Below, in pieces: positions 12,541 through 13,869 of a stretch of DNA of 64,000 nucleotides (its first letter is position 1; every line of letters starts with the position of its first letter). The notes below the pieces were generated by a model that had not been told where the DNA came from, searched no databases, and saw nothing but the letters and a program-made list of their open reading frames with translations. Position numbers and translations under genes: made by a program. Origin of the DNA: Candidatus Thorarchaeota archaeon (GTDB taxonomy: Archaea; Asgardarchaeota; Thorarchaeia; Thorarchaeales; Thorarchaeaceae); the NCBI GenBank assembly GCA_011364985.1, contig RDOC01000002.1, positions 189,424 through 253,423 of the forward strand, read 5' to 3'.

Positions 12541-13869
12541 ATGAGTAAAGAAAAGGAGCACCTCAATCTAGTAGTAATCGGCCACGTCGACCACGGCAAG
12601 AGTACGATGACCGGCCGATTGCTCTACGAGACAGGTGCTGTTGACGAACGAACCTTCCAGCAGCACAAAGCTGAGGCTGAGAAGCTAGGAAGGCCTTCCT
12701 GGGCCTGGGCTTTCGCGCTGGACAGGCTGAAGGAAGAGAGAGAACGCGGTCTCACGATTGACATTGCATTCTTCAAGTTCCTAACTAACAAATACTACTA
12801 CACCATTATCGATGCCCCTGGTCATAAAGACTTCATTAGCGCTGCGTGATTTCCACTCAGCGGTGGAAAAAACATGATCACGGGGGCCTCACAGGCTGAT
12901 GTTGGTTTATTGGTAGTCAGCGCAAAGCGTGGTGAGTTTGAGGCTGGTGTTGGTCCTGGTGGACAGACAAAGGAGCATGCTTATCTTGCTATGACCCTTG
13001 GCGTGCCAAGCCTTATTGTCTGTATCAACAAGATGGATGATGACAGTGTCAAATTCAGTGAAGACCGTTACAAAGAGGTCAAGGAAGAAGTCGAAGGTTT
13101 CTTGAAGAGCATTGGCTACAAAACTGAGAAGATTCCTTTCATCCCCACTGCTGCTGTTGATGCATGCAACCTGAAGGTGAAAACTCCTGAGAAGACCCCA
13201 TGGTACAATGGTCCCTGCTTGCTGGAGGCTCTTGATGAGGTAGAGCTTCCACCGAAGCCAACCGACAAGCCATTGCGCTTGCCACTGAATGATGTCTACT
13301 CAATCAAGGGGGTTGGCACTGTGCCTGTTGGTCGTGTTGAAACCGGTATCATGAAAGTTGGCCAAAAGGTCATATTCATGCCTCCAAATAAGACTGGTGA
13401 AGTCAAGTCCATCGAGATGCATCATGAACAACTCAAAGAGGCAGTTCCCGGAGACAACATTGGATTCAATGTCCGAGGTGTCGAAAGGAAGGACTTAGGT
13501 CGCGGTGACGTTGCTGGACCTGATAGCGATCCACCAACAGTAGCTGCTGATTACACTGGCCAAATAATGGTCATTCAACATCCAACAGCTATTACTGTCG
13601 GTTACACTCCAGTCATTCATGCTCATACTGCTCAAGTTGCCTGTAGATTCGACCAGATTTTGCAAAAGCTTGATCAACGCAGCGGACAGGTCATTGAAGA
13701 GAACCCAGACTTCGTTAAGAAAGGGGAGTCTATGATTGCCAAGCTAGTGCCTCTCAAGCCGATGTGCATTGAAACCTACAAGGACTTCCCACAGCTCGGC
13801 AGATTTGCTGTTCGTGATATGGGCATGACCGTTGCGGTTGGTGTCGTGACCAAGCTCACAAAGAAGTAG
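12541..13869 (+). CDS. tuf: Translation elongation factor EF-1alpha (aEF1A), intron-containing: join(12541..12838,12869..13869), 432 aa
   Basis: [27 protein letters not shown]|[24 protein letters not shown]; the two ORF-track pieces are in frame and separated by a 30-nt insert containing TGA. Confidence 0.96.
12839..12868 (+). other. Bulge-helix-bulge (tRNA-type) intron in EF-1alpha mRNA, 30 nt
   Basis: Central helix TCAT(12833-36)/GTGG(12863-66); bulges TA^G and AA^A; intron stem CGCTG/CAGCG plus GTG/CAC; excision gives TTC ATT AAA AAC ATG (FIKNM). Confidence 0.88.

Follow-up and report, generated by a model that had tools for sequence, protein, structure and literature searches.

A probable BHB-type mini-intron within the EF-1alpha gene of a Thorarchaeota archaeon

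Analysis of a 64,000-nt stretch of DNA from a Candidatus Thorarchaeota archaeon (assembly GCA_011364985.1, contig RDOC01000002.1, positions 189,424 to 253,423 of the forward strand; hereafter the window) points to an intron of the tRNA type inside the gene of a translation factor. The window carries a single gene for archaeal elongation factor 1-alpha (aEF-1alpha), located on the plus strand between the ATG at 12541 and the stop codon at 13867-13869. We find it very probable that the 30 nt at 12839-12868 of this gene (plus strand) are a bulge-helix-bulge (BHB) mini-intron of the relaxed HBh' form in the aEF-1alpha pre-mRNA, its boundaries being set by the cut rule of the tRNA splicing endonuclease, EndA.

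Reading frame and fold of the insert

Codons D91 to I99 (DAPGHKDFI) run to position 12837 and N101-M102 (NMITG) resume from 12871, with the codon of Lys100 split around the insert (A12838 and A12869-A12870). The 30 nt are thus placed between DFI and KNMITG, and they read in frame as AGC GCT GCG TGA; given that an A flanks both ends, deletion of 12838-12867 is equivalent to deletion of 12839-12868. Exon 1 (12541-12838, plus strand) encodes M1 to I99 and the first base of the Lys100 codon, and exon 2 (12869-13869, plus strand) encodes the last two bases of this codon, N101 to K432 and the stop; with the insert removed, the 298 + 998 nt make 432 codons plus stop. The in-frame TGA (12847-12849, plus strand), which is kept in all six of the intron variants described below, causes the calling of open reading frames (ORFs) with translation table 11 to yield two pieces broken exactly at the insert (12526-12849 and 12874-13869), and translation of unspliced mRNA would end at this codon after 102 codons, counted from the ATG at 12541. 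Pfam assigns positions 1-83 of the GTP_EFTU model to the upstream piece (E 6e-30) and positions 85-184 to the downstream piece, followed by GTP_EFTU_D2 and GTP-eEF1A_C. The split at model position 83|85 indicates that one domain was cut cleanly, and upon removal of the insert the G domain and domains 2 and 3 of aEF-1alpha are colinear, as in the family. The protein is 84-92% identical to intronless orthologues of Thorarchaeia. A sequence-only reading of this DNA had claimed an insert of this length and position, carrying an in-frame TGA within an invariant EF-1alpha motif of a probable Asgard archaeon, as well as a 432-residue protein after excision and a gene that annotation would split. The sequence bears out these claims, and the nearest relatives are metagenome-assembled genomes (MAGs) of Thorarchaeota.

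Folding of 12811-12887 with RNAfold gave a minimum free energy (MFE) structure of -29.2 kcal/mol, compared with a mean of -18.7 for 200 shuffled sequences (z = -3.5), none of which was as stable. In this structure (all coordinates on the plus strand), a distal exon-exon helix of 12 bp closes the fold, its 5' strand (12814-12825) pairing with 12874-12879 and 12882-12887 of the 3' strand (12874-12887); 91.7% of its cells are paired in the six variants, and it begins 4-6 nt from the 3' splice site. The central helix is formed by UCAU (12833-12836), located wholly in exon 1, and GUGG (12863-12866), located within the intron, and is paired in 100% of the cells; the MFE lengthens it by U12832-A12867 (12832-12836 with 12863-12867), i.e. 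to 4-5 bp. The predicted 5' splice site lies in a bulge, UA|G (12837-12839, cut after 12838), that is 3 nt long in the MFE and whose letters differ among variants (UAG, AAA, CAA, UAA) at constant size and place. The intron hairpin h' (12840-12862) follows, with a 5-bp stem (12840-12844/12858-12862), a 1x1 C.U mismatch, a 3-bp stem (12846-12848/12854-12856) and the loop AUUUC, 8 bp in total. The predicted 3' splice site, AA|A (12867-12869, cut after 12868), lies within a 6x6 internal loop. The structure therefore has the 4-bp central helix, the 3-nt 5' bulge and the inner helix h' of a BHB and lacks the second 3-nt bulge closed by an outer exon helix h that the strict hBHBh' motif carries; the position of the 3' splice site in an internal loop assigns it to the relaxed HBh' class, reported for endonucleases of broad specificity (PMC5829648). 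The sequence-only reading had named these helices and bulges and called the motif a relaxed BHB, which was right; it had drawn the AAA site as a clean 3-nt bulge, which was not.

Features of group I, group II or spliceosomal introns were not found, the boundaries being A|G...A|A, and we rejected a ribozyme intron because 30 nt are far too short for one. Rfam and ARAGORN gave no match at the insert site, and across the whole window no Rfam family reached its gathering score.

Same-codon inserts in relatives and the fate of the gene

An intact EF-1alpha orthologue was used as query against 400 genomes of the phylum, including the window's own (G000; 1.70 Mb, 22 contigs, 74% complete). EF-1alpha was found in 68 genomes of the window's family, and four of these (G000, G024, G349 and G342, representing four genera, three besides the window's) carry a 30-nt insert at this codon, hereafter site A; about 60 orthologues of the same family are without it. 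A degenerate pattern allowing an insert of 12-42 nt at site A matched only those four, and none of the 396 other genomes of the sample. A scan with the exact pattern recovered the same three public MAG contigs and five metagenome contigs of the Joint Genome Institute (JGI). Together, four MAGs and five metagenome contigs yield six distinct intron sequences. An assembly or sequencing artefact, i.e. a chimeric or duplicated read fragment inserted by the assembler, might be suspected because the source is a MAG and because the EF-1alpha gene of G342 is interrupted further down by an N-gap, one flank of which is duplicated. The recurrence of the insert at one codon in MAGs from different studies and in metagenome contigs, in six variants, leaves this explanation a vanishingly small chance.

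Alignment of the six intron sequences (A1) showed that 92.9% of the pair cells are standard, compared with 35-64% when the partners were slid by 1-3 columns. Pair 12840-12862 (pair 30-52) is CG in three sequences and UA in three, pair 12843-12859 (pair 33-49) is UA in three, CG in two and AU in one, and pair 12844-12858 switches between G-C and G-U. Compensatory substitutions are thus present in this small sample of six related sequences. The sequence-only reading had proposed to look in relatives for same-codon inserts with covarying stems; three further genera and five independent metagenome contigs have them.

Archaeal BHB substrates are cleaved by the endonuclease at a fixed distance from the 4-bp helix, two nucleotides 3' of each of its strands. 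Applied to G000, this rule joins ...TTC ATT A and AA AAC..., encoding lysine, and predicts the spliced junction ...TTCATTA|AAAACATG... Each of the six site-A variants regains F-I-K-N-M under the rule, Lys100 being AAG in G349 and in loci L148 and L149, so that the earlier claim of a regenerated Lys codon holds beyond the window. In G349 and L148, the rule gives ATC A + AG AAC or ATT A + AG AAC, i.e. lysine, and the in-frame triplet before AAC is CAG (Gln). Since this triplet would be decoded by a ribosome that reads through or hops, either process would put Gln at a position that is Lys in 31 of 31 tabulated family sequences; on these sequences, only a cut inside the codon is predicted to restore Lys. 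The exact junction was likewise restored by the rule at two further sites in EF-1alpha, site B (DKYYYT) and site C (PSWAWAF), and in ahcY (GHPSEVMD), all described below.

These data bear on two explanations that require no splicing. In the first, the insert is translated, the TGA being read through or decoded as selenocysteine (Sec), to give a 10-residue insertion beside switch II. The site-A insert is indeed always 30 nt long, and hence in frame, and always carries a single TGA; moreover, Asgard archaea have Sec machinery. Against this, the substitutions are RNA changes that come in pairs rather than codon changes of a synonymous or conservative kind, the peptides that would result vary freely (SAA*FPLSGG, NAA*FSRCSG, NAA*FPLGSE), and the invariant Lys would turn into Gln in two variants. 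Furthermore, sister inserts of 31 nt (EF-1alpha of G342) and 32 nt (ahcY of G000) shift the frame, the insert of genome G388 carries TAA, and the orthologues without the insert function. The inserts thus do not all stay in frame and do not evolve as codons, as recoding would demand (no search for a Sec insertion sequence, SECIS, was made), and we give a translated insert a very slim chance. Asgard archaea have been screened for Sec machinery (PMC11291895).

The second explanation is programmed translational bypassing, with the 30-nt hairpin skipped by the ribosome. The insert is short, forms a hairpin, lies inside a coding sequence and has a stop codon soon after the take-off region, and in G388 a TAC followed by TAA precedes the insert with another TAC near its end, a superficial likeness to take-off and landing codons. 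At site A, however, ATT, ATA or ATC stands before the insert and GGA or GAA before the resumed frame, so that no matching landing triplet was found there. In G349 and L148, a ribosome that landed ahead of the Lys position would read CAG (Gln) where Lys is invariant, and in G388 bypassing would produce DKYNYT instead of the conserved DKYYYT. In addition, bypassing has no need of a 4-bp helix with cut points two nucleotides beyond it on either strand, a geometry that recurs at three unrelated sites and in ahcY. Bypassing retains, in our view, a slim chance.

We further considered that the gene is dead or dying, the insert being a palindromic DNA element in tuf and a functional copy lying in the unassembled quarter of the genome. 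In support of this, the insert is palindromic, ORF calling gives two fragments and the genome is incomplete and spread over 22 contigs. G000 holds only one EF-1alpha, two other matches being distant GTPase paralogues (32-33% identity), and in G024, which is 97% complete in 20 contigs, the interrupted copy is the sole EF-1alpha at E <= 1e-60. The ratio of nonsynonymous to synonymous substitutions (dN/dS), determined by the NG86 method over exon 2, was 0.046 between G000 and an intronless congener (L001-L004), 0.055 between G349 and its intronless sister (L114-L043) and 0.037 between G388 and G021 (L113-L014), compared with 0.043 between two intronless EF-1alpha genes. The values of 0.046-0.055 were reached over a dS of 0.6-1.5 and are as low as between intact orthologues; judging by these ratios, the interrupted gene is under strong purifying selection. 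No other damage to the ORF was found, and the insert has diverged with its pairing kept, which argues that it is old and constrained. A dead gene thus has a small chance. An assembly artefact and a second intact tuf, both of which the sequence-only reading had named as findings that would overturn it, do not appear in the data available.

A quick IQ-TREE tree of exon 2 (33 DNA rows; seven rows duplicating other loci exactly, L115 on account of its N-gap, and two short contigs, L147 and L148, were omitted) follows the genus groupings, and the site-A state requires at least four changes on it, at least two of which are forced by the starred branches alone. Within a single family, the site-A intron has come or gone several times; the site-A counts do not distinguish gains from losses, and they come from relatives that are not independent of one another. 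Upstream of the insert, all six intron-bearing alleles have GGT CAT, and all of them GGT CAT AAA, codons that belong to the exon helix; of the 25 intronless alleles, three have CAT and seven have AAA. Two intronless alleles, L006 (G014) and L017 (G022), have synonymous codons 94-101 typical of intron bearers (CAT AAA ... ATT, or AAA AAT), and such flanks may have been left behind by a recent, precise loss of the intron. The intron itself is probably no regulator but a selfish or neutral element that the host tolerates.

Other inserts, splicing enzymes and the weight of the evidence

EF-1alpha genes of relatives carry inserts at two other sites. G388 has no site-A insert and carries a different 30-nt insert, with TAA, at DKY|YYT (site B), comprising the helix GUAC/GUAC, the bulge UA|A, a 6-bp intron stem and the 3' site AA|U; the cut rule yields TAC TAT TAC and thus DKYYYT. 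G021, its closest relative in the exon tree, is intronless. In G342, the site-A intron is accompanied by a 31-nt insert at PSW|AWAF (site C), in which the helix UCCU/GGGG directly adjoins a 9-bp exon helix and the hairpin build and AUUUC loop are as at site A; given that it shifts the frame, it cannot be translated through. The two-intron gene of the G342 type is contiguous in three independent metagenome contigs. A third break in the gene of G342 was rejected as an intron, being an N-gap with a duplicated flank that is absent from those three contigs. The EF-1alpha assemblies of G342 (L115 1404-1503) and of G139 (L127, L132) both break at residues about 120-139 with a duplicated overlap of 17-18 residues, by the N-gap in G342 and by a gene spread over two contig ends in G139, the probable cause being that strains became tangled during assembly of this conserved stretch.

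Outside the window, the ahcY gene of G000 (S-adenosylhomocysteine hydrolase; C1:129-160, minus strand, locus L154) has an ORF that ends with GHPS, where an insert of 32 nt shifts the frame. The MFE of this insert has a strict 3-nt bulge, a 4-bp helix (CCAG/CUGG) and a 3-nt bulge with an exon helix, i.e. a canonical BHB, and its hairpin (5 bp, mismatch, 3 bp, 5-nt loop) has the shape of that in the EF-1alpha intron. The cut rule restores GHPS|EVMD.

The sequence-only reading had also proposed that a genome-wide scan for BHB motifs might reveal other split genes. We scanned G000 for introns of 16-80 nt that have a 3-nt bulge beside a 4-bp helix and, next to it, an inner stem of 4 bp or more, and that on removal fuse two ORFs, each 70 codons or longer. 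This strict scan gave 901 matches, compared with 828 in a shifted-partner control, and no enrichment emerged after filtering by stem length or hairpin energy; EF-1alpha was the only recognisable match, and the ahcY intron was missed because of an A.G mismatch next to its bulge. Since the scan did no better than its control, it permits no claim on the total number of introns and offers no independent genome-wide support. A scan for the architecture itself, a BHB enclosing an ATTTC-like loop on two stacked stems, returned seven loci, compared with none in the reversed genome. The loop word of the intron has 29 matches in the genome, with no flanking stems except at EF-1alpha, indicating that the intron is not a simple sequence repeat.

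One locus of the architecture scan lies in the D-loop of a probable tRNA gene (C16:72508-72545, plus strand; locus L157 509-546), where a 31-nt BHB insert (intron C16:72514-72544) has the two-stem, U-rich-loop build; Rfam scores a tRNA there at 30 bits (L157 538-600), and ARAGORN missed the gene. The only tRNA that ARAGORN reports in the 64-kb window, tRNA-Pro(CGG) at 36218-36294 on the minus strand, is without an intron. Five further loci have the BHB-plus-hairpin architecture: C16:187319-187353 (minus), which is flanked by T-arm-like GGAGG...CCTCC, C11:210062-210099 (plus), C11:48333-48364 (plus), C15:94393-94425 (minus) and C1:5864-5898 (plus). Removal of the inserts at these five loci restored no ORF, and none of the loci matched an Rfam family.

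We tentatively suggest, while holding it less likely than not, that the EF-1alpha introns belong to a stereotyped, still-mobile family of BHB mini-introns of about 30 nt, built from a stem of 5 bp, a single-base interruption, a second stem of 3-4 bp and a U-rich loop of 5 nt, that colonises mRNAs (EF-1alpha at three sites, ahcY), tRNAs and rRNAs of Thorarchaeia and is gained and precisely lost over short times. If so, introns spliced by enzymes would be proliferating in protein-coding genes of close relatives of eukaryotes, and an mRNA of top abundance would be processed before translation, implying some functional uncoupling of transcription and translation.

Several other irregular EF-1alpha genes were encountered. 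The split gene of G360 was rejected as an intron case, for it shows abutting frameshifts without inserts, probably due to sequencing error or decay. Low-scoring matches in another family, f18, were rejected as interrupted genes, being divergent tandem paralogues: G110 (C18:95639-98554) and G102 (C1:2796937-2799860) each have two tandem EF-1alpha-like genes, one a frame of ~510 aa with an internal match gap and one of ~455-468 aa, which are 36-48% identical to the Thorarchaeia protein. In L116 (G159, of another Asgard family), an in-frame TGA without any insert stands at EF-1alpha codon 175 (EITG*LKQVGY; Phe in relatives), and could be a sequencing error, recoding or decay. In G017, a second, partial copy with one TGA (C2:45160-45546; residues 202-330, 86% identity) lies 3 kb downstream of the intact gene.

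To process such an intron, the cell would need an endonuclease that cuts relaxed motifs and a ligase, and the genome of G000 appears to encode both. A search with PF01974 revealed two genes. The first, EndA alpha (188 aa), aligns end to end and gap-free with Aeropyrum pernix EndA alpha (3P1Z_B, E 1.7e-46); the alignment spans the Crenarchaea-specific loop (CSL), K43/K45 standing at APE K44/R46. It is this loop, together with K44, that enables the enzyme to cleave motifs that are relaxed or misplaced (PMC3241643). The second product (213 aa) is without the catalytic His and would, as expected, fit the beta subunit; Asgard EndAs have been reported as (alpha-beta)2 enzymes carrying this loop (PMC5829648). 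The two EndA genes are located on the minus strand, at L139:1474-2040 and L140:1441-2082. RtcB is present as well (594 bits).

We propose that exon 1 and exon 2 pair over ~12 bp in the transcript, which would bring the splice sites together, and that the 4-bp helix UCAU/GUGG, with its 3-nt bulge on the 5' strand and a loop on the 3' strand, is backed by the stable intron hairpin. The heteromeric (alpha-beta)2 endonuclease would then cut two nucleotides 3' of each helix strand, after 12838 and after 12868, and RtcB would ligate the exons, recreating the Lys100 codon and the 432-aa protein. The intron would probably be released as a small circle. An mRNA left unspliced would terminate at the intron TGA.

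A number of points weigh against this proposal. Splicing itself is deduced from comparison of sequences, and it would have to outrun translation of a heavily used mRNA. The 3' splice site lies in the 6x6 internal loop instead of a 3-nt bulge, so that its cleavage would depend on a broad-specificity EndA, and the central helix contains two G.U pairs. The covariation derives from six related sequences; its score was reached in 3 of 500 shuffles, and as many doubly changed pairs arose in 109 of 500. Taken alone, the covariation appears to be good but not overwhelming evidence for a conserved structure. Given that G000 is only 74% complete, it may have a second, intact EF-1alpha copy. The lack of excess in the strict scan belongs here too. 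The proposal is supported in that each BHB-intron prediction tested at the sequence level held.

Relation to known systems

The proposed intron would imply that the tRNA-type splicing machinery is required for an essential, abundant protein, EF-1alpha, in Asgard archaea, the lineage closest to eukaryotes. In practice, gene callers will label this marker truncated or a pseudogene, affecting completeness estimates and EF-1alpha phylogenies. The intron would also provide a concrete and easily assayed substrate with which to study how ribosomes are kept off unspliced mRNA in an archaeon, a question that bears on the timing of the separation of transcription and translation. Finally, its scattered presence and the intron-like synonymous flanks of some intronless alleles offer a natural system for spliceosome-free gain and precise loss of introns in coding genes.

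In eukaryotes, HAC1/XBP1 mRNA is spliced as a regulated stress switch, IRE1 cleaving and RtcB or Trl1 ligating. Like that reaction, the one proposed here would be protein-only and spliceosome-independent, taking a short intron out of an mRNA at paired stem-loops, with ligation by the RtcB family and a change in the protein made. Unlike it, in which the nuclease is IRE1 and the sites are 7-nt loops, the EF-1alpha intron would be cut by EndA at a BHB and shows no evident regulation. Translational bypass elements, such as that of T4 gene 60 and the 'byps' of Magnusiomyces (yeast) mitochondria, require a take-off codon matched by a landing codon for the ribosome to skip them. They resemble the EF-1alpha insert in being short, hairpin-forming and apparently mobile, with stop codons, in essential coding sequences; in EF-1alpha, in contrast, the codon pairs are absent and the conserved geometry is that of an endonuclease substrate.

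Non-canonical and multiple tRNA introns are known from Thermoproteales and Asgard archaea (PMC11291895; bioRxiv 10.64898/2026.10.13.758758), as is the role of the EndA loop (PMC3241643, PMC5829648). The EF-1alpha intron shares with them the 4-bp helix, cuts predicted two nucleotides beyond, relaxed HBh' forms and the same inferred enzymes, and the D-loop intron of G000 has a similar stem-stem-loop build. Unlike those of tRNA introns, the host RNA here is a translated mRNA, so that splicing would compete with ribosomes and would have to restore the reading frame. In the literature covered, papers on the tRNA genes of Asgard archaea, which are rich in introns, make no mention of introns in mRNA.

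A study of 2020 described cbf5 as the only BHB intron reported in archaeal mRNA and added a new one in a 5' untranslated region (UTR) (PMC7714728). The latter, in HVO_1309 of Haloferax volcanii, is a 46-nt piece whose excision was shown by sequencing of circular RNA (circRNA-seq) and in vitro cleavage (PMC7714728). Both it and the EF-1alpha insert present the tRNA splicing endonuclease with an mRNA substrate, outside tRNA and rRNA, and a small excised piece. The HVO_1309 intron lies in an untranslated leader, so the reading frame is independent of it, whereas the EF-1alpha intron, as predicted, interrupts a codon of an essential ORF.

The closest known case is the BHB intron in the pre-mRNA of cbf5 (pseudouridine synthase) of Sulfolobales and Desulfurococcales (Watanabe 2002; Yoshinari 2006; Yokobori 2009, PMC2738675). 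In both genes, an intron of the BHB type lies inside an archaeal coding sequence, is the presumed substrate of a heteromeric, broad-specificity EndA, is patchy among close relatives through gain or loss, and leads annotation to split the ORF in two. Splicing of cbf5 was demonstrated on RNA, whereas that of EF-1alpha is predicted from sequence. The EF-1alpha intron differs further in that its host is an Asgard archaeon (Thorarchaeia) and not a crenarchaeon, its gene yields one of the most abundant mRNAs, and across relatives the gene has at least three insertion sites and up to two introns per gene, each of about 30 nt. No BHB intron in EF-1alpha or in any Asgard mRNA was found in the literature searched. 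Given that cbf5 is the sole coding-sequence BHB intron in that literature, we conclude that the proposed mechanism is of a known kind and that the novelty lies in host gene, lineage and multiplicity.

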